From IMG/VR virus record IMGVR_UViG_2541047683_000005: DNA of 17,291 nt; one strand, 5' to 3'. The stretch comes from a virus (Duplodnaviria > Heunggongvirae > Uroviricota > Caudoviricetes). Both the position numbers and the translations under genes were made by a program. Every line of letters starts with the position of its first letter. The stretch's first letter is position 1. Positions 1 to 17,291 of this stretch are shown here, piece by piece. The notes below the pieces were generated by a model. That model worked only from the letters and a program-made list of their open reading frames with translations, did not search any database and was not told the DNA's origin.

Positions 1-2757
1 TCAGTTCCCCACCGCCTTTCCAAAATCCGGTGCTCTACGTGGCGCAATAGCACCCGGTTCCCACCAACTCGTTATGTCGAACTCCCGTTGCGCGCGGTCC
101 CTTACTCGATCATTGTAACCAGGGTTTGCCATCTCCTGAAGTTGTTGCAATATCAGGTGATTGGTTATCGCTTTCGCATACCACAGGTTTGCGAATGGAG
201 TGATCATGCGGGCTGTTTTCAGTGCATCGGCACCGAATGATGTTTCTTCACCCTGTAGAGCCTTCTGTGGGTTAGTAATCAGTAATTTTGTTAACTGCTC
301 TGCAAAGCTCAACACAGGGCCACCCATAGTGGCACCGATGCTGGAGCCATATTGCGTATGGTCCTGGAAAATAAAATCACCGTAGATACCGAACGAACCA
401 CCTTTCAGTAGAGCCTGAACCCATGTGGTTGGTTTTGTCATATCCAGCGGGTCATTACCATTTAACAAACTGTTCATCTGGATCGCAAACATACCAGCAA
501 GAGTTGTTCCCCCGATATATGAGGCCAGAAATTTAATGGCCGGAACGGTGTCCAAATCCCGTGTTCTGTTAACAAGTTGCCGAAATCCAGCAAATGGGGT
601 TGTTTTGAAGAGCATGAAGCTCTTCATTAACTCGCCAGCATCATCACGGGCATATGTATCAATACCCGTAGCGGTGGTCACAGCATTGGTCATCTCACCG
701 TGCGTAATTCCCAGCAATTTCTGGGCTGCTTCAGCGCGTGCATTACGAATCATGCGCGTGATGGTCTGCTCAGCCTCAGCGTCGAATGCTTCTTTCATCC
801 GTTTCAGGCGTTCTGGAGGGAGATCTCCAAGGGCTGCCAGTGCCTTTTCACTCCCGGCACGAATCCGGGCAATACGGTCTGCCATAATGTCGGCGATTAC
901 GTTATCGGGCACAGCGTAAATCGCGTCTGGCGTCATCCCCATATGCCCGGCAGTAGTCATCGGCCTGAGTTCTGCCGCTGCCATGATGGCCCAGTCCTCA
1001 TTGCTCCATCCCTTGTTAGCCAGAATGGTTTTATCGGTTCCTTTTATATCGTCCAGCGTCTTAAATTTTCTGGTCAGCTCGCCAATATTTTTGTACATCA
1101 GGAGACCAAACGACGCTTTGTTTGCGCGGTCCATAGCGATCAGCCCGGACCACTTCAGTGTCTTCTCTGCGAACCAGCCAGTTATGCCGCGAGACAAGTC
1201 AAACCCGCCCATTTTCGAAACCACAGCAGCATGTGAATCCACCAGCAGACCGAGTTCAGCATTCGCCTTTTTGGCATCTCCACTAAACAGGTTTTTGATA
1301 GTGTTAACGGAAAGCCGCATTCCACCACGGGTAAAGCCCAGCGCCTGCGCATTTGCCCGCATAATTGCCTGGTCGCTGGTTGCTGTCAGTACGCTGGTGC
1401 CAAGCATGGCGCTGGTCATCAGGTTACGCAGACCACCAACTGCTGAAGAGAACACACTCGATGAAGCGACACCATTTAGGCCAGCCATTGAGTTGAACAT
1501 ACGGGCAACTAATTTGGCCTCATCCTCCATTTCTTTTTTGCGTTTCCCGCCTGTTACTGCGCGCTTATAGATGCGATCCAGTACCAGGGAAAAGTTTCTT
1601 TCGGCGTCCGGACCAAAGGCTTTAACGACGCCCAAATCCCTGGATGATGATTGCAGGTGCGACATCATCACCCCCACCAGCGGCTGCTGAGTGTATCGCT
1701 CCATATAGGCGAAGTGTGACTGCGCATCCTTGAACGCCATCACCCTGTGCTGAGAACCACGGCTCTTTATTCCTCCGGCTCCCATAAATGTACCAGGCTC
1801 AATTTTGTTTGCCCCATCAGTGGCCTTCGTTTCAAAGATCGCTTCCAGTGCCTGACGGTACTCGACGTCATTCATAATGCTGCCGTCAGGATTAACGTAA
1901 TTGCTGCGATCCTGCGTGTTGTAAGCGTCATCAACCCATTTCTGGCGGGCAAACTCAATCGGTGGCTGGCGACCTGAAAGACGTGCTGTAGCTTGCTCTG
2001 CCACTGGTAACGATGCCAGCCATTCTTCGCGCCCGGCATTGCGAATAAGGTCAGCATCATCCACATATGGCGTATGCCAGTCTTCTCGCAGGCCTATGTC
2101 AAAGCCGTTGTCGTTCATCTCATGACGAACACGGCCTGTTACATCCTTCCAAATCTGTGCAATTTTCTTCGCCAGGGGATTACCGGTATCTTCGCCATAA
2201 ATTTCTTTCAGGATCTGGAGTTGTGCAGACTTTGCCGCCTGCCTGTCGAATACACTCCGAAACCGCTGCTCTCCAAGCGCCCTGCTCTGCTCGAAGAATT
2301 TGCGGACGTCATCACCTGCTTTTAGAAGTTCAGCACTGAGCTGACGGGACCAGTCCTGATATGCCCCAATTGCAAGCTCTTCAGCAGAAGTAACGGAGAT
2401 ATCAGCTTTGTCTCTCGATCGTCGGCCAGCAAAAATAAACTGCTGCAAATTAACAGGTGTCTGCTGATCAGGCGGGATGTTAGCATCGAGAGTGTCAGTA
2501 ATTTTACTGATGGCGATCGCATTCTGGGCAACACGCTGTCTTTTCTTGTACACATCATGAACCACACGCTGGCGTACCAGTTCTGCTGCATCCATGTATG
2601 TTTGAGCATCAGGAATACCACTTTTGCCTTCTTTTGCATTCTTTCTGTGCACATGCTGCACAGCTTCTTTGATACGATCTTCAATATTTTTCAGCTCATC
2701 AGCCTTTGGCTGGCGACCAAGTGTCTGCGCAATAGCTTCCACACATGCCTGTTTCAT
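1..2757 (-). CDS. Large hypothetical protein, 918 aa; candidate phage virion-internal/ejection-type protein (function unassigned)
   Basis: Uninterrupted minus-strand ORF ending with TGA at 3..1. The track ORF starts at 2778 but that codon is GTG (plus strand 2776-2778 is cac) with no nearby SD. The ATG at 2757 (MKQACVEAI...) has GAGGAA 6 nt upstream and overlaps the upstream stop as TAATG, so it is the preferred start. Protein is rich in A/G/S/T/N/Q with almost no Cys and has Gly/Ala/Ser-rich hydrophobic stretches (e.g. LAGLNGVASSSVFSSAVGG). No catalytic motif recognised. Confidence 0.65.
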   Translation of the reverse strand: MKQACVEAIAQTLGRQPKADELKNIEDRIKEAVQHVHRKNAKEGKSGIPDAQTYMDAAELVRQRVVHDVYKKRQRVAQNAIAISKITDTLDANIPPDQQTPVNLQQFIFAGRRSRDKADISVTSAEELAIGAYQDWSRQLSAELLKAGDDVRKFFEQSRALGEQRFRSVFDRQAAKSAQLQILKEIYGEDTGNPLAKKIAQIWKDVTGRVRHEMNDNGFDIGLREDWHTPYVDDADLIRNAGREEWLASLPVAEQATARLSGRQPPIEFARQKWVDDAYNTQDRSNYVNPDGSIMNDVEYRQALEAIFETKATDGANKIEPGTFMGAGGIKSRGSQHRVMAFKDAQSHFAYMERYTQQPLVGVMMSHLQSSSRDLGVVKAFGPDAERNFSLVLDRIYKRAVTGGKRKKEMEDEAKLVARMFNSMAGLNGVASSSVFSSAVGGLRNLMTSAMLGTSVLTATSDQAIMRANAQALGFTRGGMRLSVNTIKNLFSGDAKKANAELGLLVDSHAAVVSKMGGFDLSRGITGWFAEKTLKWSGLIAMDRANKASFGLLMYKNIGELTRKFKTLDDIKGTDKTILANKGWSNEDWAIMAAAELRPMTTAGHMGMTPDAIYAVPDNVIADIMADRIARIRAGSEKALAALGDLPPERLKRMKEAFDAEAEQTITRMIRNARAEAAQKLLGITHGEMTNAVTTATGIDTYARDDAGELMKSFMLFKTTPFAGFRQLVNRTRDLDTVPAIKFLASYIGGTTLAGMFAIQMNSLLNGNDPLDMTKPTTWVQALLKGGSFGIYGDFIFQDHTQYGSSIGATMGGPVLSFAEQLTKLLITNPQKALQGEETSFGADALKTARMITPFANLWYAKAITNHLILQQLQEMANPGYNDRVRDRAQREFDITSWWEPGAIAPRRAPDFGKAVGN

Positions 2758-4817
2758 TATGGGTTCCTCAAGAAGCACGCTGCCGCTACAGAATAAACCT
2801 TCGATTCGTTCTGGACTGTCTTAATCTGTTCATCCAGCTCAGCCAGGAGATCAGAAAGTTTTGTCGGGTTTCCGGTTTCCGGGTGAGCTATAGTCAGCTC
2901 AGGATTGGCAACAGCCATGTCCCTGGCAGCCATAAGGTCATAGCTGTTGGATGAGAGAACCTGCCCTGTATCTGGATCAACGCTGACGTCCCCTCTGTGT
3001 TCACCAGCCGATGAGAAAGCACTTTCAGCACGAGGGACAGGCGATTCACTAATTGGCTCTGATGATGTTTCATATCTGACACCATTTTCTTCAAAAACCT
3101 TTTGTATTTCATGGTATTGCTCTTGGTAAGTATCAGATATATCTGATCGCAATGGACCATCAAGCCCTCGCGCCATCCCCCCAACATTTACAGGCTGACC
3201 ATCATTAAGTTGCCTGTATGCTTCATCCATGGCGTCAACATGACTGTTGATGCTCTCATTGCTGGTGTGAAGCACTGGTGACGATTCAATATCGTAATGA
3301 AGCCCCTCATTCAAAATGTGGGCTGCATCAATATCGCTTGGTTTTATTCTTTCCCTCGCCCGGATACCAAAAACTTTTTCTACTGCGGCTTCCAGTTTCA
3401 TATTGCGAAGACGCATACTTACGAGTAACCGTAACTGCTCAGGTGTAACGGTTCCAACCTGAATACCACTGTATCTGAATATATAGGCTTTAAAACCTGA
3501 AATAATTTTTTCCCATGACGAAACGCTTGTCTTTAGAGATGGATTTACTGCATGTGCGGCAACTTCTTCAGCGTATAACCACTCAGGATATGTTTCAGGG
3601 TACTCACCCCTTTTCTTATATTCATAATATTGTGACATCCCATATGCAAATTCAGGATAGTCAGAATGCTTGTTTGCAGATTTAAGTACAGCATTAGCTA
3701 GCTTTCTGGCCTTCCAGTCAGGGTAATGGCGCTGCTCAAGATGAAGCGCCTCATGATGAAGGGTTTCTAACAGTTCTTCATGGTCTTTTAATCCATTAAT
3801 ATTTATTCTTATTATTGGTTCTTTTCCAGAAGCTACTGTCACATGACCTTTATTCAGAAGTATTTCTCCATCACTATTTTTTATTGCTGGTTCATTAATA
3901 AGTTCTATTACTCCTGAATCAGATAAATCACGAACCATTGACTCAATGTTACCATCAGGAGATTGCTGATAATGTTCACCAAAAGTTGATTTTATTTCTT
4001 CTGCAGAAATGTTCGACTCTGTACCATCATGGTTATTATGGGTAGTCAGGTGATGAACGCCACCAAAGACCCCGCCTAAAACGGCATCGACTAACATCGC
4101 CTGACCGTCAAATACCCGGTACTGTTTTGCCATCTCCGTGTAGCCTTTTTCCTCCAGTGTTGCACCGACAGAGTAACGGTTCAGTCCACCGAATCCGGTG
4201 TTGATTGCCACACCTGAGGCAATGCGCGTTGCCAGTGTGGTGCCGACGGCAGCGGGTAAGGCCATACCCACAGCATTGAAAAGGCTCTGCTGCGTTGCCA
4301 GGTTACGCGCCGTAGCCTCATCTACTCCCTTCCCTTTAAAATCCTGATAGGACTGCTCATACGTAGAACCGAAGGCTGTAGCAGCGCCGATGAGTGGGCC
4401 GCCAAACATAGTTGTTCCGATTGCAGGAACAAATTTACCAAGCTCATTTAATACCTCAGCCGCCATTCCCTGGCTGCCTGCATCAGGCTTCACATAGCTG
4501 CGGGCATCCTGTAACTGTTTTCCGATCGTGTCGTATGTATCATTCAGTGTTTTGTCAGCATCAGGGAACATCTCCCGAAAAATATTAACAGTCGGTGCCA
4601 CGTCTGCGGTAAATGCCGGATCGCTAATCAGGCGCTTGCTGAATCCGACGGCAGACTGCGCGAGACCGAGAGCCCCCTCCGCCACGCCGCTCAAAAGTGC
4701 AGTACCTGAACCCTGGAAGGGAGTCGGATCGTAGTCTTCTGGCCTTGCTGGGTTGGCAACTGTTTTGTCGTCAATCCATGCCTGACCTTCTGGAGCCAAA
4801 GAAAAAACATCAGACAT
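2757..4817 (-). CDS. Large hypothetical protein, 686 aa, with glycine-rich hydrophobic segments and an HExxH (HHEALH) zinc-metallopeptidase-like motif
   Basis: ATG at 4817 overlaps the upstream stop as TAATG; GAGGG lies 7 nt upstream. N-terminal third has glycine-zipper-like hydrophobic segments (GKFVPAIGTTMFGGPLIGAATAFG; LVDAVLGGVFGGV). HHEALH is encoded at 3741-3758, inside a visibly AT-richer patch (about 3400-4060). Confidence 0.65.
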   Translation of the reverse strand: MSDVFSLAPEGQAWIDDKTVANPARPEDYDPTPFQGSGTALLSGVAEGALGLAQSAVGFSKRLISDPAFTADVAPTVNIFREMFPDADKTLNDTYDTIGKQLQDARSYVKPDAGSQGMAAEVLNELGKFVPAIGTTMFGGPLIGAATAFGSTYEQSYQDFKGKGVDEATARNLATQQSLFNAVGMALPAAVGTTLATRIASGVAINTGFGGLNRYSVGATLEEKGYTEMAKQYRVFDGQAMLVDAVLGGVFGGVHHLTTHNNHDGTESNISAEEIKSTFGEHYQQSPDGNIESMVRDLSDSGVIELINEPAIKNSDGEILLNKGHVTVASGKEPIIRININGLKDHEELLETLHHEALHLEQRHYPDWKARKLANAVLKSANKHSDYPEFAYGMSQYYEYKKRGEYPETYPEWLYAEEVAAHAVNPSLKTSVSSWEKIISGFKAYIFRYSGIQVGTVTPEQLRLLVSMRLRNMKLEAAVEKVFGIRARERIKPSDIDAAHILNEGLHYDIESSPVLHTSNESINSHVDAMDEAYRQLNDGQPVNVGGMARGLDGPLRSDISDTYQEQYHEIQKVFEENGVRYETSSEPISESPVPRAESAFSSAGEHRGDVSVDPDTGQVLSSNSYDLMAARDMAVANPELTIAHPETGNPTKLSDLLAELDEQIKTVQNESKVYSVAAACFLRNP

Positions 4818-7348
4818 TATTCAACCCTCACGACAATAGCTTTATTGGTTCTGGGATCTGTTGCCCAGCGTCCGCTACCATTTACAAGCCGATACCGGTT
4901 ATTGCCGATATTAACTGGCGTGAAATTTGACACTGCATTTACGTTAAGTCCGGCATCTTTCAGTGCTTGTTTCGCAGATGTGGTATAGCGATCTTTGAAA
5001 GTAGATTTATCCATGCCGAAAGGCATTACAACGTCGCCGCCATTAAAACCATTGTATATACCGCCAGTAGCATACTTCACGGCATCAGCTACAATGTCTG
5101 TATCAGGCATACTGGTTCTTACCGTAGATGCATCACCAGATTGATAAGCTATTCCTGCATAAGCGGCTTTGAAAAGGCTATAACTGATCTGGCGTAACTG
5201 CGGGTTACGGGCAAATGCATTACCTACCTGTTCGTCGAAAGCGTCTTTCATCTTATCTTCGCTCGGCAACTGTACCGGAGTTATGCCCGCATTCTTCATG
5301 GCCTTCGTCGGATTCAGTAGTTGGTCGCCGGAAAGAATAACCTTTGCAACGTCGTACTTGTTCATCGTCGGCTTATACCCGATGAACTGACTATATGGGA
5401 TCGTCGGCTTGGTGTTGTCGTACTGGTTATCCGGCGTGCCCAGCAGCAGCGCAGAATAGGCTGTTGCCGCACTGTTCGGAGCAATTACAGATGCCACCTG
5501 CCGTATTGCTGGCGCAGGCAGCTTCTCCCCCATGCTCTGCAACAGTTTAATTGTCTGGTCAACGTTCTGAGTGCCGCGCACCTGCTGTGCCAGCGCAGCC
5601 GCCTCTTCACTGTTGAGGATTGGGGCATTAATTCCCAACGCGCGTAAGCTTTCCTGCGACGAGAAACGGTTAGCCACCTCGGCAGTGATGTCGTCAGGGT
5701 TGTTGCTGGTGATCGGCTTATAGGCTCCGATTTCCACCGCTGCACTAAACGGATTATTCTGCCTCTGGGTTATTACCTTCGTGGCTGCCGCCGATACCCG
5801 GTCGAATAACTCCGCACGAGACGCATACCCCTCCCCTGTTTCACCAGTATCCGGGCGCAATTGCTCAACATATGCGGTAATGCTGCTTGTCGGCATGTTG
5901 CGGAAAGAGCCTATATACTGTCCGGCGATCTGCAAATTTCTGAACTCGATATATCGCAGGTTTCCTTCTCTGACACCATAAGCTGCAATGAACTCATCCT
6001 CACCAGGTGGGTTAGGAAATTCAACGCCACGCATAAACGCAGCCGTCGCATCGCGAACCCTGCTATCGAGCATCGTTCTATATTCAGCCTGCTGCTGTCT
6101 GGCTAATGCATCCGTCTGTCGCAACACGCTGGCCTGATCTGATTCATTTAAAGCATCGAACCAGGCTACACCGGTATAACGTTTATTTTTTGTCGGTAGC
6201 TGAGAAAGCCCCAGTGCGGCACTAACACCTGCAGTTAACTGCTGATCACTGTATGGCTGGCTACCGTTTTCATGATGGATAATGGCTGCACAAAGCGCCT
6301 TCAGGGTATCAGGATTTGATGCATCGAGAGGCTCATCAGCAGAAACGCCAAGTTGTTCGCACACTGCTTTGATATACGACATAGTGTCATTTTTATCAGT
6401 AGGCGGTGCCCAGCGATTAATTATCTCGCTGACGGTATCAATACCCTGCCGCTGATACGACATCAGGTTCCGCCCTAATGCACGAATACCGTGTTCAGGG
6501 GTTTCGAATTTGGCAAAGCGACCATCATCACCAGTCTGCCCAACCCACGGATTAGTTTTGCTGTATTCAAGATTGCCGGGGTTATTGTTGCGTATACCGC
6601 GGGTACGATCGGAAGAGCCACTATCTGCTACAGCACGGCGAGATCCAGCAGCAGTATCGCTTAACTCGCCGTTTTGCTGTCTTACCTGAAGATAGTTTGC
6701 TCCAATAGCATTTTGAGCAGTTGCTTTTGCTGTTGCTTCTTTAAACTCGATTTTCTTGGCCTGGATTTGCTCGTCGCTCCAGCCATGCGCAATACCGTAA
6801 TCCTCAATTTGCTGGAAAGTTTGCGTATTAGCCAATATGTATGCTGCGTTGTCGCCATATAATGCTGCGGCATTTTTACCATTATTCAGCAGTGTCGCCT
6901 GAAACTGGCCTTCTTCGTAGGCATTTATTTGCCCTATCTCGTACCTCCCGGCCTGCGTAGTGAACTGAATGCGCTGCTGCTGCGCCTGCTGCATGAAAGC
7001 ATTACGAGCCTGTTCATCCGGCAGCGACATAGCCAGTTGTTCGACCTGAGCATCAAACTGCTGTGTATACTCATGGCCTTTTCCAATAGCATTTTTCCCT
7101 TTCAGATTAAGCAATCCTGTTTCAGGATTATTCAGCAGATCACTGCCTGTCTGACTGAGTTTAAGGGATGCCTCCTGAACCAAGGCAATATTGGCGCGCT
7201 GTTTTGCCTGACCAAGAACATCAATTGCCTCTGTCCCTGCCCGAACAAAAGCATCACCAATACCTGGCTGAGAAAACGTCTGCAAGCCTGCTGACTGAAC
7301 TCCACGGCTCTCAACCTGACGTCCGGATACTGTTGGTACGACTGGCAT
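4817..7348 (-). CDS. Large hypothetical protein, 843 aa; candidate phage virion-internal protein (function unassigned)
   Basis: ATG at 7348 with GGGGG 6 nt upstream; stop overlaps the next gene start (TAATG at 4815-4819). Gln/Ala/Asn-rich N-terminus typical of phage structural proteins. Conserved-looking segment RNNNPGNLEYSKTNPWVGQ...RWAPPTDKNDT at about aa 251-330 (nt about 6239-6598). Confidence 0.65.
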   Translation of the reverse strand: MPVVPTVSGRQVESRGVQSAGLQTFSQPGIGDAFVRAGTEAIDVLGQAKQRANIALVQEASLKLSQTGSDLLNNPETGLLNLKGKNAIGKGHEYTQQFDAQVEQLAMSLPDEQARNAFMQQAQQQRIQFTTQAGRYEIGQINAYEEGQFQATLLNNGKNAAALYGDNAAYILANTQTFQQIEDYGIAHGWSDEQIQAKKIEFKEATAKATAQNAIGANYLQVRQQNGELSDTAAGSRRAVADSGSSDRTRGIRNNNPGNLEYSKTNPWVGQTGDDGRFAKFETPEHGIRALGRNLMSYQRQGIDTVSEIINRWAPPTDKNDTMSYIKAVCEQLGVSADEPLDASNPDTLKALCAAIIHHENGSQPYSDQQLTAGVSAALGLSQLPTKNKRYTGVAWFDALNESDQASVLRQTDALARQQQAEYRTMLDSRVRDATAAFMRGVEFPNPPGEDEFIAAYGVREGNLRYIEFRNLQIAGQYIGSFRNMPTSSITAYVEQLRPDTGETGEGYASRAELFDRVSAAATKVITQRQNNPFSAAVEIGAYKPITSNNPDDITAEVANRFSSQESLRALGINAPILNSEEAAALAQQVRGTQNVDQTIKLLQSMGEKLPAPAIRQVASVIAPNSAATAYSALLLGTPDNQYDNTKPTIPYSQFIGYKPTMNKYDVAKVILSGDQLLNPTKAMKNAGITPVQLPSEDKMKDAFDEQVGNAFARNPQLRQISYSLFKAAYAGIAYQSGDASTVRTSMPDTDIVADAVKYATGGIYNGFNGGDVVMPFGMDKSTFKDRYTTSAKQALKDAGLNVNAVSNFTPVNIGNNRYRLVNGSGRWATDPRTNKAIVVRVE

Positions 7349-7777: not shown

Positions 7778-8017
7778 CTGTGCTTACTTCTGGTAGTTAC
7801 GCCATACTGATTTCCCGATCCCATCTATCCCCATTTCTTTTTCAGTGCGTTTAAGCGACCGTTTCAGGTCTTCTAAATTATCCGGTTGCTTCGGTGGCCT
7901 CTGTGCCTTCCTGGAACATTCCAGTCGTCGCATTGATATGTAATACCGTTCCTTGTCAGTTCCCCAACTGCATTACTTCACCCCATCGCGCCGCCGCTCT
8001 TCGATACAGGGTTTTAG

Positions 8018-8434
8018 TTAGCCTCCGGCTCTTCCGTAGCGCTGTTCTGGTGGATTCACATAGCCCCTTTCTTGCAGGTATTCGCGAATATCAGACATCA
8101 GGAGACGGTTAACCGTGCTCCTGTCTTTTCTCTGGTAAAGGCGTCTGGTGATCATGAAGTAGTTAGCAATGACCTCCGGTATATCCCTGACGCTGATACA
8201 TGCTGTATGCTGGTCAATAGCTTCAATCATCTCTTCACGAGTTACAAAAGTCTGGCGTAAACGAGTGATCACACCATGTACATCTGAATGATCATTTATA
8301 CGCTTATTTTGGCGCTTCGCGCTCTCGACTGTGACACTGACAACAATGTCAACTCTTTGTTTCTCCGCCATTTCATCCACAATGTGATCACCTGCACGGC
8401 GACCATGTGCGTGATCATTTCTTACTATTTCCAT
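8018..8434 (-). CDS. Hypothetical protein, 138 aa
   Basis: ATG at 8434 with GGAGGAG 6 nt upstream; overlaps the 3' end of the FinO-like gene by 20 nt. No recognisable motif. Last gene before the terminator. Confidence 0.55.
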
Positions 8435-8948: not shown

Positions 8949-9374
8949 TTAAAACGGTATCCCGTCCCCGTACGGATCATCGTGCTGGCCTGTCTGTTGC
9001 TGTGCCCTGTTCAGTGCATCAGTAGCCTGCCCCTGCTGGCCTTTTTTGCCGCCCGGTCGCGCCGTTCGCGCACTGATTACGCTGTCTGCGATAACCTGCC
9101 ATCCCTGCCTCGTTTCGCCGTTCTGGCCCGTCCACCGGCTCACCTGCATGTTACCGGCCACGCTCACCAGTTCGCCTTTGTGGTGTTTTGCCAGTGCGTC
9201 AGCCTGTCTGCCAAACGCCAGGACGGATAACCACATCGTCGCCGTTCCGTCATCTGCCTGATTGCATGGAAGAGGGACCGCCATACTCGCCATCGCCATT
9301 TGTGTGCCCTTGCTGGTGGTCTTTAACTGCGGGTCAGCCACCAGCCGCCCGTAAGCTGATATTTGCGCCGTCAT
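8949..9374 (-). CDS. ssb: Single-stranded DNA-binding protein (SSB)
   Basis: 141 aa with an OB-fold-like N-terminus, a Gly/Gln-rich linker and an acidic C-terminal tail ending DDPYGDGIPF (canonical SSB tail ends DDDIPF). ATG at 9374 with GGAGA upstream. Confidence 0.85.
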   Translation of the reverse strand: MTAQISAYGRLVADPQLKTTSKGTQMAMASMAVPLPCNQADDGTATMWLSVLAFGRQADALAKHHKGELVSVAGNMQVSRWTGQNGETRQGWQVIADSVISARTARPGGKKGQQGQATDALNRAQQQTGQHDDPYGDGIPF

Positions 9375-9434
9375 GCTGTTTGTTCTCCGGTTTTAACGTG
9401 ATAGTTACGCTTGTTTACACTCTTACAGTGAAAT

Positions 9435-9563
9435 TTTGCGGGTTACAATCGCACATTTGCGGGTTATAACTGCCGTTTTGCGGGTTACGTGCGGGTTATT
9501 GATTTCCTTTTTAATCATGCAGTTAATTAACTTATACACAGGATAACCCGCATAACCCGCAAC
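9435..9563. repeat. Iteron array with adjacent AT-rich tract: putative origin of replication
   Basis: Four direct copies of GCGGGTTA (three as TTTGCGGGTTA) starting at 9438, 9459, 9480 and 9491 (spacing 21, 21, 11 bp). An AT-rich tract follows at 9499-9540, then two inverted copies TAACCCGC at 9544-9551 and 9553-9560. Located between the replication gene stop (9585) and the ssb start (9374). Confidence 0.75.
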
Positions 9564-9584
9564 TTTTTACCTCACACAGGGAAG

Positions 9585-11711
9585 TTAATCTTCTGCTTCA
9601 GGCTGGAACATCAGCACGTAAAAAATATGCTGCTTCCCGCCAATCCTGCCGAGCGCCTTTTTCTTGTAACGGCGGTCGCCTCCCGCTTCCAGCATTCCGG
9701 CAGCACTCAACGCGCGGGCAAAGTGGGACGGGTTAAATCCCTGTGCGATCTCCCCCTCAAACACATGCGGAAACGTGTAAAAACGGAACTCATCATCTTC
9801 ATTTCTGATACTCCCCTTTCTGTATCCGGCAAGGTCTTTAATCGGTAAATCACGCTCATCGCTGTTTGGGTAGGGAAGGTATCTACTGAACCCGAACGAC
9901 GACAAAAACGCCTCAGCCTGTTCAACCATCTGTTTAAATTCCCTGTTGCCCGTGCCGAATTCCTTCACCCAGGCATTAAAGTTATGCTGAACTGCATCAC
10001 GGCACGCCTGAACATCCCAGCCTGTAACATGACCGGAAAGCACAAGCGCGGCCTCCAGTACGGCGAATCTTTCCCCCACGCGGTGAACCTGCTCGCCGTA
10101 GCTCTCCGGTATCAGGTTGCGCCACCGCTCGCGACATGCCCTTACCGCGTCCTTTGCCTCCTGCTGGTGGCCTGCCAGCCATTTAACCCACTCACGACCT
10201 GCCGCCCCGTGATTTTCTGTCCAGGCATCTTTTAACGCGTCTGCGTGCGCCTTTCCGGTGCTGTATTCGTGAAACTGCGAGGCCTTTTCCATCGGCACGT
10301 TAAGCAGACGGACAAGCTGCCCCGCTTTAATTTTTATCCCTTCCGTTTTGAGGAATGTTTCAACGTCCATTTCTCCGGTGCTGATTGCCACCGTGCGCCA
10401 GTGTTTTATCTCCCTGTTGCCGCCGTCCTTCGCCCCCTGTAATTTCCCGGAACCGTTAAACAGCGTATAGGCTGACGTGGACACCTCCCGCGCGTTTCCG
10501 GCCTGGCCTATTTCATCCAGGGGTAACAGCCCGTCATTATGTGCTTCGGCCTCGTTGGCGATACCTAACGCCGTTCCGTACCAGGTCAGCCGTTGCGCGT
10601 CCGGCTCTCCCCATAAACTTGATGCAATGTTCTGTGTGGTGGTTTTACCTGCTGATGATTGCTCAAAAAGATGAACCCCGAAGCCGTCAGCACCCACCAG
10701 CCCGATTAATGGTGCGGATAGCGATACCGCCACACCCAGCATCATGGACGGATTACCACCAGCCAGCCGCGCCACGGTATCGCGCCAGCCCTCCGCTGTT
10801 CCCGCCACGGAATAGCCATTAACTGCGGCAGTTTTTCCGGTAAACAGGATGGGTTTCTCTGATTCACCAATGACCGAACCATCCGGCATGATGTACGCAC
10901 CAAAATGCCAGCCCGTTGTAGTGCTTAGCTGCCATTCCTCATGACTTCCGCTTAACTGCATCCAGTCAGCCAGGATGGCTCTGTATTTGCCGTTGGTCGT
11001 CACGTTAAGACCGTGGTCTTTCAGCAACCGCCAGCCGTCACGGTCACCAATGCCTCCGCACGGGACCGCCATTGTAATGACCTCATGGTTTGCTGGTTTT
11101 TTCCAGCGCATCACGCGGTAATGCTCTTTGCCGATTGTTCCTGTTCCCAGTAGTTCAAGCGGAGAACATAACCACGTCTCAGGCCGGATAATTTCGCCTG
11201 ACTGCTTGTCCACTTTGGGCGTTACCCAGAAAACACCATCGACGCGACTTTCAACACGAGGCTTTAATTCGTCATCATAATTTCCGGTGAAATTTGTCTT
11301 TGCCGGAAGGTTGATCACCAGACTGTTACCGCGTTCCGCATCATCCTTCAGTCCAGCCATGCGCGGTGTCCAGTCCTCCGGCTGCTGGTCAACAAAGCTG
11401 CGGTAGCAACGCGCCTCCTTCACACCCGCCACTGCAAGCAGTGTCGCTATCTGTGTAAGGTGCTGCTCTGATATTTCACCAGCACGATAAACGCGCACGT
11501 AATAGCGCCCTTTGTCGATGATTTGCGTGTCTGCCAGACTCGCCAGTTGTTCCGGTCCAAGAATAACTGGATGTGTATCATCTGCCGCAATATGCTTTCC
11601 GGCCCATTCGCTCCACTCTTTCGCATGTGCCCAGGCATCACTACCCGCAAAGATAATCACCTCCGTCATTTTGTCTTTCGGCTGGTGCTTTAAATTCGGT
11701 GCGCGTTTCAT
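9585..11711 (-). CDS. Replication protein, 708 aa (primase/helicase-like with P-loop; DUF927-like)
   Basis: Large ORF with a P-loop-like motif (QSSAGKTT) mid-protein. Start ATG overlaps the upstream stop as ATGA (11708-11711). Position between alpA/regulators and the iterons matches pri-rep genes of P4-like and PICI-like elements. Family assignment is from memory of domain architecture, not a search. Confidence 0.7.
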   Translation of the reverse strand: MKRAPNLKHQPKDKMTEVIIFAGSDAWAHAKEWSEWAGKHIAADDTHPVILGPEQLASLADTQIIDKGRYYVRVYRAGEISEQHLTQIATLLAVAGVKEARCYRSFVDQQPEDWTPRMAGLKDDAERGNSLVINLPAKTNFTGNYDDELKPRVESRVDGVFWVTPKVDKQSGEIIRPETWLCSPLELLGTGTIGKEHYRVMRWKKPANHEVITMAVPCGGIGDRDGWRLLKDHGLNVTTNGKYRAILADWMQLSGSHEEWQLSTTTGWHFGAYIMPDGSVIGESEKPILFTGKTAAVNGYSVAGTAEGWRDTVARLAGGNPSMMLGVAVSLSAPLIGLVGADGFGVHLFEQSSAGKTTTQNIASSLWGEPDAQRLTWYGTALGIANEAEAHNDGLLPLDEIGQAGNAREVSTSAYTLFNGSGKLQGAKDGGNREIKHWRTVAISTGEMDVETFLKTEGIKIKAGQLVRLLNVPMEKASQFHEYSTGKAHADALKDAWTENHGAAGREWVKWLAGHQQEAKDAVRACRERWRNLIPESYGEQVHRVGERFAVLEAALVLSGHVTGWDVQACRDAVQHNFNAWVKEFGTGNREFKQMVEQAEAFLSSFGFSRYLPYPNSDERDLPIKDLAGYRKGSIRNEDDEFRFYTFPHVFEGEIAQGFNPSHFARALSAAGMLEAGGDRRYKKKALGRIGGKQHIFYVLMFQPEAED

Positions 11712-14758: not shown

Positions 14759-14956
14759 TCAAGCAGCCGTTCCGCGTGATTCGGCAATACGCTGATTGAT
14801 CCATTCGTCAATTTCACTTTCAACGAAAGCAATCGCTCGCGAGCCAATTTTAACTGATGCAGGAAATTTACCTTGCCCCATAAGGCGATAAATCCATGCC
14901 TTGCTATATCCAGTTCTACGCTGAACTTCTGTTAAACGAATAAGCGTATTTGACAT
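14759..14956 (-). CDS. alpA: AlpA-family transcriptional regulator (prophage CP4-57-type regulatory protein)
   Basis: 65 aa. MSNTLIRLTEVQRRTGYSKAWIYRLMGQGKFPASVKIGSRAIAFVESEIDEWINQR matches the AlpA helix-turn-helix and the conserved E-IDEW-xQR C-terminus. ATG at 14956 with GAGGT upstream. Confidence 0.9.
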   Translation of the reverse strand: MSNTLIRLTEVQRRTGYSKAWIYRLMGQGKFPASVKIGSRAIAFVESEIDEWINQRIAESRGTAA

Positions 14957-15150: not shown

Positions 15151-15948
15151 TTAATCCGGCTTTGCGTTCTTTTGGCTGTTGTCTCGGTTAATAGGGCAGG
15201 CAGTCCTCTCTATGAGCGTTGCAAGAGCATTACTTGCCCCCCACTGCTTAAGCTCCCTGGTTATCGCTTCTTGATTTCCCCTGGTGGCAAAATCATTTTC
15301 TGGATCGTAATTGGCCCACTCTCTGTTTCTAATCTCAATAGCCTTAGCTAATGGGTCTTTATCCCAGTATTTATATAAGTGTATCGGGCGCTCTTGCTCT
15401 AACTGCTCTATCCTTGCCCTTAACTCTGCGTTTTCTTTTTCCAGCCTTGCGATTTGGGATAATAAATCATCCTCTGTACGCAACTCTTTCTTTTCAATAT
15501 CGCGTCCTTGTGCCTCGTCATTTTCAGAAGAGTTAGCGCCTTCCAGCTTCGTTAACGCGTCAAGGACATCGGGAAAAATTGCGAAAATTTCACCCCTTAT
15601 AAATCCAATGTTCTCAAATTCGGGATCTTCCCAATAACCGGACACCAGAAAACCATTTTCATCCCTCTCACCAGGTAAACAACCACGTTTCCGAACCGCA
15701 TTCAGATTTCTATAAAGAACATCATAATCAAATTCATCCCGATACGGGTTACAAAAAGATTCCAACAGCTTAAATTCATTTACTGTGTACAGGCGGATAT
15801 GTTCTCCGCTTATTCTCCTGAGTATCCAAGTTATGACATCTGAAACATCATAATCATCACCAGCGACCTTAAGCACGACCTCAAGAAATTCACGTAAAGA
15901 AATAAAATCTTTTTTGTATTCGTTTAATTCGGCATGAATATCAATCAT
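15151..15948 (-). CDS. Hypothetical protein, 265 aa, with central coiled-coil segment; AT-rich orphan gene between int and alpA
   Basis: The track ORF starts at 15954 but that codon is GTG directly abutting GAGGT. The ATG at 15948 has GAGGT 6 nt upstream and is the preferred start. Contains a heptad-like segment LLSQIARLEKENAELRARIEQLEQE. The gene is visibly more AT-rich than its neighbours. No enzymatic motif recognised. Confidence 0.6.
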   Translation of the reverse strand: MIDIHAELNEYKKDFISLREFLEVVLKVAGDDYDVSDVITWILRRISGEHIRLYTVNEFKLLESFCNPYRDEFDYDVLYRNLNAVRKRGCLPGERDENGFLVSGYWEDPEFENIGFIRGEIFAIFPDVLDALTKLEGANSSENDEAQGRDIEKKELRTEDDLLSQIARLEKENAELRARIEQLEQERPIHLYKYWDKDPLAKAIEIRNREWANYDPENDFATRGNQEAITRELKQWGASNALATLIERTACPINRDNSQKNAKPD

Positions 15949-16076
15949 ACGCACACCTCAGCGTCCTCTACTGTAGTGGCTGTACCAGTCCGTCGAGGTG
16001 TACGGATTTTCGGGAGCGATCCTAGACACAGCCTTTTCTTTCGTCGCTCAAAGTCTACTACTGTATACGCAACCAG

Positions 16077-17291
16077 TCATCCACATTTTCCGAACTTGCC
16101 ATGCACCACGTTACCGCCATGTTCGAGCGAATCCATATAGTCGGCGTACCACTGGAGCATCTCGCGCCGCCCGTCCAGATATTGCGCATGATTGTACGTG
16201 CCACGAATTGAGTTCTTATCAACGTGTGCAAGCTGCGTTTCTATCCACGCGGTGTTATAGCCCTGCTCATGTAAAATCGTGCTCATCGTGTGCCGGAACC
16301 CATGACCAGTAACGCGCCCAGAATAGCCAATACGACGAATAAGCACGTTCATCGCCATTTCACTCATCGGCTTACTGTGCTGGATTCGACCAGGGAAAAT
16401 AAACTGATACTGCCCCGTCATGTGTTTTAACTGTTCCAGAATAGCGATCGCCTGTTCTGAAAGCGGCACACAATGAGGACGGCGCATCTTCATGCGTTCT
16501 TTCGGCACTTCCCACAGACGATTATCAAAATCAATCTCCTGCCACTCTGCCTGTCGTAATTCCCCTGGACGGAGTCCTGTCAGAATCAATAATCGCATAC
16601 CCAGCTTGACGATCTGGCTTCCGGTGTACGTATTAAAAACGCGGAAAAATTCCGGCAGTTCGTCGGCCTTCAAATAGGCGTAATGCTCTTTTTTGTGTGG
16701 AGCAAATGCGCTTGCCAGATCTGGTGCGGGGTTATATTCAGCGCGTCCGGTGATGATTGCGTACCGGAACACCTCGCCGCATCGCTGGCGAACCTTACGC
16801 AATTTTTCGGTCGCCCCACGGTCATTAAGACGGGAGAGAACCGCGAGCAACTCCATTGGCTTAATTTCTGCGATCGGCCTGCCGCCAATGTACGGAAAGA
16901 CGTCTTTTTCAAACGTCTCGATCATTTCCTCGGCGTATGACGATGACCACCTGTCGATCCGCTTTTCGTACCATTCGCGAGCGATACCCTCAAAAGTATT
17001 GCCAAATTTGCTAGCCTGTTCTCGCTTTTGGGCTTTTCTGACCTCACTTGGATTTATACCACCAGCAAGAAGCCTTTTAGCCTCATCCCTTGCCGCCCTG
17101 GCATCAGACAGAGACACATCAGGGTACACACCCAACGACAACATTTTGGGCTTTCCTGCAAACCTGTAGCGCAGTCGCCACCCTTTCGAACCGTTCGGCT
17201 CAATGAGCAACGAAAGCCCGTTACCGTCATTGAGTGTATAAGCCTTTTCTTTCGGCTTCGCGCGCCTGATGGCAAGGTCTGAAAGCAGCAT
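16077..17291 (-). CDS. int: Tyrosine recombinase, P4-family phage integrase
   Basis: 404 aa with ATG exactly at the window edge. N-terminus (AIRRAKPKEKAYTLNDGNGLSLLIEPNGSKGWRLRYRF) is the integrase arm-binding domain typical of P4-like integrases. C-terminal catalytic signatures are present: LRPGE (Arg), HGFRHT (His-x-x-Arg) and RGTYNHAQY (Tyr nucleophile). Confidence 0.9.
   Translation of the reverse strand: MLLSDLAIRRAKPKEKAYTLNDGNGLSLLIEPNGSKGWRLRYRFAGKPKMLSLGVYPDVSLSDARAARDEAKRLLAGGINPSEVRKAQKREQASKFGNTFEGIAREWYEKRIDRWSSSYAEEMIETFEKDVFPYIGGRPIAEIKPMELLAVLSRLNDRGATEKLRKVRQRCGEVFRYAIITGRAEYNPAPDLASAFAPHKKEHYAYLKADELPEFFRVFNTYTGSQIVKLGMRLLILTGLRPGELRQAEWQEIDFDNRLWEVPKERMKMRRPHCVPLSEQAIAILEQLKHMTGQYQFIFPGRIQHSKPMSEMAMNVLIRRIGYSGRVTGHGFRHTMSTILHEQGYNTAWIETQLAHVDKNSIRGTYNHAQYLDGRREMLQWYADYMDSLEHGGNVVHGKFGKCG

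Follow-up and report, generated by a model that had tools for sequence, protein, structure and literature searches.

The window, a stretch of 17,291 nucleotides filed as the Caudoviricetes record IMGVR_UViG_2541047683_000005, contains a compact array of short repeats between a large replication gene and ssb. This array raises the question as to whether it is an origin of replication and, if so, which protein would act on it and what kind of element would be copied from it. A sequence-only reading had described four direct and two inverted copies of an 8-mer with 21/21/11 phasing and had interpreted them as iterons. We recovered all six copies where that reading had placed them: GCGGGTTA starts at 9438, 9459, 9480 and 9491 on the plus strand, and at 9544 and 9553, with a spacing of 9, on the minus strand. 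With its flanks included, the part that never varies is TGCGGGTTA plus one adjoining 3' pyrimidine, which corresponds to a repeat unit of 9-10 bp. The four direct copies of TGCGGGTTAY (set B: 9437-9446, 9458-9467, 9479-9488 and 9490-9499, plus strand) are spaced by 21, 21 and 11 bp and are oriented toward an AT-rich spacer and away from ssb. The two tandem copies of TGCGGGTTATGCGGGTTAT (set A: 9543-9561, minus strand) follow each other in a 9-bp phase, and their onset lies 24 nt past the rep stop codon.

The clustering of these repeats is not random. GCGGGTTA occurs seven times in the 17.3-kb window compared to an expectation of 0.44, none of 200 dinucleotide shuffles reaches seven copies, and six of the seven are packed into 124 bp. 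Outside islands of this type, we found about two copies in approximately 80 kb of other E. coli sequence (loci L005, L006 and L001, chromosomal flanks). With these counts, we can eliminate the possibility of a chance repeat as well as that of a generic host motif; the latter was the objection that the sequence-only reading had raised against its own proposal, and the 8-mer proved not to be a common host word. A full-text literature search for the 8-mer, covering text alone, returned unrelated primer sequences only. Searching the literature for DUF927 together with iterons returned nothing for enterobacterial islands and no text describing a TGCGGGTTAY iteron.

The two iteron sets flank an AT-rich spacer (9500-9542) that is a probable DNA-unwinding element. 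This tract of about 45 bp has a GC content of 0.27 as compared to 0.49 window-wide, and the 40-bp stretch starting at 9497 ranks at the 99.9th percentile of predicted duplex instability within the 17.3-kb window. Hence, the flanked AT-rich tract postulated from the letters alone is indeed present. The spacer also harbors a candidate DnaA-box-like 9-mer, TTATACACA (9532-9540, plus strand), which abuts set A and is the sole match to TTWTNCACA in the 17.3-kb window. At the equivalent position, the E. coli islands L002 and L003 contain a perfect TTATCCACA; a DnaA-box-like motif is missing at the spacer of the non-Escherichia loci.

The array takes up the intergenic stretch from the stop codon of pri-rep (9585-11711, minus strand) to the start of ssb (8949-9374, minus strand), which codes for an island-encoded single-strand DNA-binding protein (Pfam SSB, E 2.4e-16). 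The claimed position 3' of the large replication gene and 5' of ssb was therefore correct. The nearby genes are all on the minus strand. Upstream genes encode a DUF4222 protein, Bro/AntA/Rha-type proteins, AlpA (14759-14956, minus strand; Pfam Phage_AlpA, E 2.4e-19) and a tyrosine integrase (16077-17291, minus strand; assigned by Pfam), and downstream follow a ProQ/FinO gene, a perC pseudogene and three large ORFs. The entire window is 100% identical to DNA of E. coli strain E1 (locus L001), where it lies wholly inside a 19.1-kb island integrated at tRNA-Gly. The ends of this island are marked by a 19-bp att direct repeat of the tRNA-Gly 3' end (L001 5428 and 24557), and the island adjoins ETT2 secretion genes. 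As expected for the island context of a PICI, int, alpA and pri-rep share one strand, and the island lacks a full set of phage morphogenesis or lysis genes. By its gene order of int, alpA, pri-rep, ssb and perC, the island is a PICI-type satellite. In characterised PICIs of E. coli, AlpA acts as master activator (PMC6092414). Among the E. coli relatives that share this replication module, L002 and L004 carry capsid, portal and terminase genes and L003 carries a small terminase gene; these close relatives (L002-L004) are annotated as cf-PICI or terS-PICI islands.

Several features of these islands are worth recording apart from the array. No capsid or terminase genes were found in the E1 island. 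Instead, the three cargo ORFs on the minus strand (4817-7348, 2757-4817 and 1-2778) are syntenic with genes gp15, gp16 and gp17 of the Salmonella podophage epsilon15, with identities of 79% for gp15 (lytic transglycosylase/head protein) and, for gp16 and gp17 (virion structural), of 74-89% and 89%. The island looks like a PICI carrying only internal or ejection proteins of its presumed helper; EcCIMP1 and phage Kapi1 provide a published parallel (PMC11773190). For induction, packaging and transfer by a helper phage, this cargo is an indirect hint at most. Downstream of proQ, at 7784-8434 of the window (offset from L001 14885-15535), we found perC as a frameshifted pseudogene, along with a hypothetical gene that is truncated, and given such pseudogenes the island may be partly decayed. 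Between the integrase gene and the next gene, the Rfam int-alpA RNA motif RF02996 (15965-16032, minus strand) scores 41.4 bits, with a gathering threshold of 35.8. A 267-residue protein labeled 'bZIP transcription factor' (15151-15954, minus strand) is encoded between int and alpA, where a regulator is expected, and gives no Pfam match. The capsid-forming PICI of strain KFu019 (L002) is bordered on both flanks by fragments of a prophage large-terminase gene (1-218 and 16147-17175), which makes this PICI appear to be integrated within the prophage terL.

To examine how the array behaves in related elements, we compared 19 other Pri-Rep loci (20 including the window). These comprise EcCICFT073 (L006), the E. 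coli islands L002-L004, of which L004 is the EcCIEDL933 type from O157:H7, and twelve orthologous loci (L007-L018) from E. albertii (L007), Winslowiella, Cedecea, Pantoea, Rahnella, Citrobacter, Pectobacterium, Tenebrionibacter, Apirhabdus and a metagenome bin; L019-L021 were picked later for a prediction test. All 19 share the same layout 3' of rep, consisting of a tandem iteron pair, an AT-rich spacer of 41-57 bp and inverted iterons. The tandem pair lies 14-30 nt past the rep stop codon in every locus with a reliably placed stop. Spacer GC content is 0.14-0.32 in all 17 tabulated loci, and the spacers fall into two length groups, 41-45 and 55-57 bp, about one helical turn apart. The inverted set contains four or five copies at approximately 11/21/21 bp in all loci except EcCICFT073, and the four-copy version of this spacing is found in 16 of the 17 tabulated loci. 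Downstream of the iterons in L002-L004, L006, L007 and L019 comes either ssb or a small hypothetical gene and then ssb.

Within this constant frame, the repeated word changes. The 20 loci fall into nine iteron classes: TGCGGGTTA with its GCGGGTTA core (the window and L002-L004), GTGGGTTA (L008, L017 and L021), CGTGGTTCA (L009 and L020), GTTGGTTCA (six loci), YCGGTTCA (L016), CTTGTCCCA (L007), CTTRTCCCA (L014), GTTGCCTCA (L019) and CTGTCTACC (EcCICFT073). EcCICFT073 retains the shared layout despite an unrelated iteron and an unrelated Rep core. The search of other genomes for the same iteron beside homologous rep genes, which the sequence-only reading had suggested as a check, thus found the identical word at L002-L004 and the layout at all 19 loci. 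A constant architecture in which the word itself changes is characteristic of an array of binding sites whose protein co-evolves with them.

The pri-rep gene encodes a 708-residue DUF927 initiator-helicase (Pfam DUF927, E 1.7e-46), whose primase-like module (residues ~1-140) is followed by a helicase core (~170-570) and then by a C-terminal domain. PHROG profiles label the whole protein as primase or primase-helicase, with PHROG 1139 ('DNA primase') matching at E 2.7e-174. The helicase core matches the 'Pathogenicity island protein' of PDB entry 8tch over residues 215-603 (E 2.1e-14) and, more weakly, the SCCmec Cch helicase of PDB entry 5dgk ('Active helicase', E 9e-4). By these profile comparisons, the core is homologous to SaPI Rep and SCCmec Cch. 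The N-terminus of about 140 residues (window 11292-11711) is a separate module, 44% identical to the N-terminus of the EcCICFT073 Pri-Rep, and is swapped for a longer, different one in six orthologues (L011-L013, L015, L016 and L018; ~700-950 residues by ORF calls, L018 by tblastn only). At a lax threshold, Pfam detected no primase domain in the first 150 residues; Pri-Rep is presumed to have primase activity.

The C-terminal domain (residues ~596-708; 9588-9925, minus strand) is a predicted (winged-)HTH domain for iteron recognition, and its identity tracks the iteron class. The Pfam family HTH_56 ('Cch helix turn helix') matches the last 70 residues of the window protein with E values of 0.014-0.022. 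Of twelve diverse family members, eight are hit, the best at an E value of 1.2e-4, and none of these hits, that to the window protein included, reaches the gathering score. For residues 560-708, an AlphaFold model built from 33 sequences reached a pLDDT of 47, too poor for use, and a PDB profile search with the C-terminal domain gave nothing beyond noise. The fold assignment is therefore based on weak profile matches together with a strong covariation.

This covariation is specific to one part of one protein. When we compared Int, AlpA, DUF4222, the Rep N-terminus, the Rep core, the Rep C-terminus, SSB and ProQ across the loci, only the Rep C-terminus (approximately the last 100 residues) followed the iteron class. 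Islands that share TGCGGGTTA with the window are only distantly related to it in Int (26-36% identity), AlpA (31-44%), DUF4222 (46-68%) and the Rep N-terminus (45-63%), as compared to identities of 94-98% in the Rep core and 85-93% in the Rep C-terminus. The E. albertii locus L007 presents the reverse case: its Rep core (96%), SSB (87%) and ProQ (72%) resemble those of the window, but the identity drops to 34% in the Rep C-terminus and the iteron is another one. Within the DUF927 Rep family, eight of the nine iteron classes pair with distinct Rep C-termini; the C-termini of L014 and L018 were read by tblastn only because of frame problems, and the same-class statistics are contaminated by L014.

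A sliding identity profile of the window Rep against that of L007 breaks at approximately residues 570-609. At the DNA level, the two loci are about 90% identical on both flanks and 30-52% identical within 9396-9925. The swapped block comprises the last ~113 rep codons and the whole array, and stops about 20 nt short of the start of ssb. We interpret this block as an exchangeable specificity cassette consisting of the Rep C-terminal domain and its array, and the DNA comparison shows that this natural swap links the iteron to the Rep C-terminal domain alone. Blind prediction of the iteron from C-terminal sequence was exact in two of three cases (P0036, GTGGGTTA; P0119, CGTGGTTCA). In the third (P0017, with a diverged C-terminus related to that of L007), the array contained a new but related word, GTTGCCTCA, in the same architecture. 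This comparative behavior suggests that the iterons are specific to their cognate Rep.

Taken together, position, architecture and comparative behavior, with the same layout at 19 of 19 loci and a class that tracks the Rep C-terminus, support the proposal that this array is an origin of replication. More precisely, we conclude with a probability of roughly 0.85 that 9437-9561 is the rep-proximal, Rep-dependent replication origin of an E. coli PICI-type satellite island. Our confidence in this array (C1) as a functional origin by itself is held at this level mainly because the island contains a second cluster (C2) of the same 9-mer. In strain E1, C2 occupies L001 5933-6084, outside the window by 1.0-1.2 kb on the left side, at a distance of 10.5 kb from C1 and about 0.5 kb from attR. 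It is a mirror image of C1: a triple tandem array whose third copy is degenerate is separated by about 85 bp of AT-rich DNA from three inverted copies spaced at 21 bp, and a TATATATATA run follows. Homologous clusters (79% mean identity) are found in other islands, for example at 495-647 in L002, 1117-1270 in L003 and 6955-7067 in L007, with the iteron word matching the class of its own island in each case. C2 is distal to C1 in L001, L002, L003 and L007; the two clusters are directly adjacent in L004 and most loci from outside Escherichia. In two strains that we checked, the separation is approximately 10.5-10.8 kb in both. Beside the triple tandem iterons of C2, we also observed a near-palindrome, TTAGCAnGCkAAG (L001 5975-5990; also L004, L008, L017 and L021), in islands of the GCGGGTTA and GTGGGTTA classes, at which a further DNA-binding protein may act.

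This second cluster lends substance to the idea that the array is an accessory Rep-binding cis site, involved in handcuffing, copy control or incompatibility or comparable to crr of P4, and that initiation occurs at C2 near attR or needs both clusters. The mirror-image homology and shared iteron would be expected under this idea, and C2 is the commoner of the two, occurring in 353 E. coli genomes as compared to 252 for C1. In L007, C2 carries the island's own iteron class, and C2 is therefore under the same selection as C1. Furthermore, the two clusters abut in many relatives, and the tested intergenic region of EcCICFT073 contains both kinds of set. However, C1 alone displays the full published origin layout of opposed sets around a meltable AT-rich center directly 3' of rep, and its position beside rep is invariant whereas that of C2 varies. 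We therefore consider a purely accessory role for C1 improbable.

We judge it to be less probable still that the repeats are operators through which an island transcription factor (AlpA, PerC or the bZIP-like protein) or a host factor controls ssb and the downstream genes. The ssb gene does begin 60 bp downstream of the array, and rep and ssb have no intrinsic terminator between them, but the array is kept where another gene comes next (L003, L004 and L019), and a scan of 9375-9584 found no sigma-70-like promoter on the minus strand. Moreover, islands that share the iteron have divergent AlpA and Int proteins, while L007 combines a closely similar SSB with another iteron, and the fact that iteron classes are island-specific and vary within one species argues against a host factor. 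There is hardly any room left for a structural hairpin (a rep terminator, cruciform, single-strand initiation site or packaging site) or for a repeat that arose by chance. As single-stranded DNA, the inverted copies can form a stem of about 20 bp (dG -27.6 kcal/mol, z -5.3), but the loop would be 45 nt long without a T/U run after it, two of the six copies fall outside the stem, and the terminator scan was empty. Packaging is at odds with the observation that an island without terminase genes keeps an array that tracks Rep and not packaging genes, and chance is excluded by the shuffle statistics. The scan of 9375-9584, which gave neither a minus-strand promoter nor a terminator, led us to reject a promoter or terminator reading; it returned one promoter-like match on the plus strand (9422-9449), at chance rate. 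An Rfam search at the array site matched no family.

Although we favor C1 as the rep-proximal origin, C1 is probably not the whole cis apparatus. C2 can be read as a second origin, as a partner comparable to crr of P4, or as a copy-control site. A tentative and rather doubtful extension of these readings is that C1 and C2 form a bipartite origin, either cooperating through Rep looping or pairing in the manner of P4 ori and crr, or acting as independent origins, and that the swapped block together with C2 constitutes the exchangeable specificity cassette. If this were true, satellites of Enterobacterales would fall into replication-incompatibility groups according to their ~530-bp block of Rep C-terminus and C1 and its matching C2, and nature would provide a set of at least eight wHTH-iteron pairs for reading a recognition code.

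How might the rep-proximal origin work? By analogy with EcCICFT073 (PMC6092414), helper-phage induction would lead, via AlpA, to excision of the island and rightward expression of its operon, resulting in production of the 708-residue Pri-Rep. The C-terminal (winged-)HTH domain of this protein would recognize TGCGGGTTAY. Rep bound to the opposed sets (two and four sites, phased at 9, 11 or 21 bp) may then assemble on either side of the 45-bp spacer and melt it, and could load itself as a 3'-5' MCM-like helicase of the SaPI Rep/Cch type, as described for SaPI Reps (PMC9371898). The N-terminal primase-like module and a host polymerase would copy the excised circle with the help of the island SSB. 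We infer this course of induction, binding, melting, self-loading and priming from homology with EcCICFT073, EcCIEDL933 and the SaPIs. Judging from these relatives, the island would replicate autonomously after induction, as the sequence-only reading had suggested.

The array is thus predicted to mark the cis site for self-amplification of a 19-kb island upon helper phage induction, and the island is identified as a PICI-type satellite rather than as a dead prophage remnant. The kind of element, the position and layout of the origin, and the mechanism are already published for PICIs and SaPIs. Compared to the literature that we found, the additions are the link between this island and its PICI family, the bounded cassette of Rep C-terminus and ori, and the split mirror-image C2. 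A specificity map of nine classes over 20 loci, combined with one bounded swap, may be useful for satellite typing, for predicting incompatibility and for the design of orthogonal Rep/ori pairs; neither the map nor the swap changes the current understanding of how such origins work.

Comparison with known replication systems places the array among the origins of PICIs. Theta plasmids such as pSC101, R6K, P1, F and RK2 use iterons of 17-22 bp and Rep_3/WH1-WH2 initiators that recruit host DnaB. The array resembles these origins in having direct initiator-site repeats by an AT-rich unwinding element, possibly with an adjacent DnaA box, but here the predicted initiator is itself the helicase, and the iterons of 9-10 bp are arranged in opposed sets. 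Pfam found no Rep_3 domain in the window ORFs, and this absence, along with the short repeat unit, separates the island from the theta plasmids.

In satellite phage P4, the alpha protein is a fusion of primase, helicase and initiator with a C-terminal DNA-binding domain that binds short repeated octamers, and replication depends on a pair of separated cis regions, ori and crr. This pair resembles the C1/C2 pair of the window island; the repeat sequence, however, is unrelated, and Rep is a DUF927 protein here. We rejected a P4-type reading since Pfam found neither psu, delta, sid nor other P4 genes among the 19 main ORFs and Rep matches DUF927 only. Of the earlier description of the array as occupying the position of an origin in P4-like and PICI-like elements, the PICI part is upheld by gene order and layout, but the P4 part holds in a loose sense only. 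The Cch protein of SCCmec (PDB 5dgk) resembles Pri-Rep in being a DUF927/MCM-like helicase that ends in an HTH domain (Pfam HTH_56). SCCmec is a different kind of mobile element from staphylococci, and the comparison with it was made at the protein level.

The origins of SaPIbov1, SaPI1 and SaPI5 lie directly downstream of rep and contain 6-12 short iterons and an AT-rich center with at least two opposed iterons per side, and the SaPI Rep is a self-loading helicase that reads the iterons with a C-terminal winged-helix domain (PMC9371898). The window shares the ori position, the opposed iterons, the AT-rich center and a homologous helicase core (8tch, E 2.1e-14) with these islands. It differs from them in that SaPIs reside in Gram-positive hosts, have iterons of 5-6 nt as compared to 9-10 nt, and are governed by the Stl repressor rather than by an AlpA activator; homology between the C-terminal domains of the SaPI Rep and the window Rep is weakly supported.

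In Gram-negative PICIs, the origin is located directly 3' of pri-rep, with opposed iteron sets around an AT-rich center (Fillol-Salom et al. 2018, PMC6092414). The array corresponds to this description: directly 3' of the initiator gene follow two tandem iterons, 45 bp at 27% GC and four inverted iterons. The cloned pri-rep-ori region of EcCICFT073 is reported to maintain a plasmid, and mutation of rep or ori abolishes or reduces this maintenance (PMC6092414). EcCICFT073 and the window island agree in the order of int, alpA, DUF4222, pri-rep, ori, ssb and perC, and in a 9-bp-phased tandem pair by the rep stop followed by an AT-rich spacer of ~41-45 bp. They differ in the iteron (CTGTCTACC as compared to TGCGGGTTAY) and in the initiator, which in EcCICFT073 is a 584-residue 'DNA primase family protein' with an unrelated core in place of the 708-residue DUF927 protein, only the N-terminal 140 residues being 44% identical. 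Furthermore, all iteron sets of EcCICFT073 are in one 240-bp intergenic region, whereas C2 of the window island is 10.5 kb away. The EcCIEDL933-type island (L004) shares with the window the TGCGGGTTA iteron, the layout of two iterons, AT-rich DNA and four iterons, the 45-bp spacer and the DnaA-box-like motif, and its Rep is 94% identical in the core and 85% in the C-terminus. EcCIEDL933 is reported to replicate after induction of its helper prophage, and its origin is not described in the text of that paper (bioRxiv 10.1101/2022.09.08.507074). In contrast to the window island, with its distal C2 and a cargo of three epsilon15-like virion proteins, L004 has a C2 that abuts C1 and carries capsid and terminase genes as cargo.
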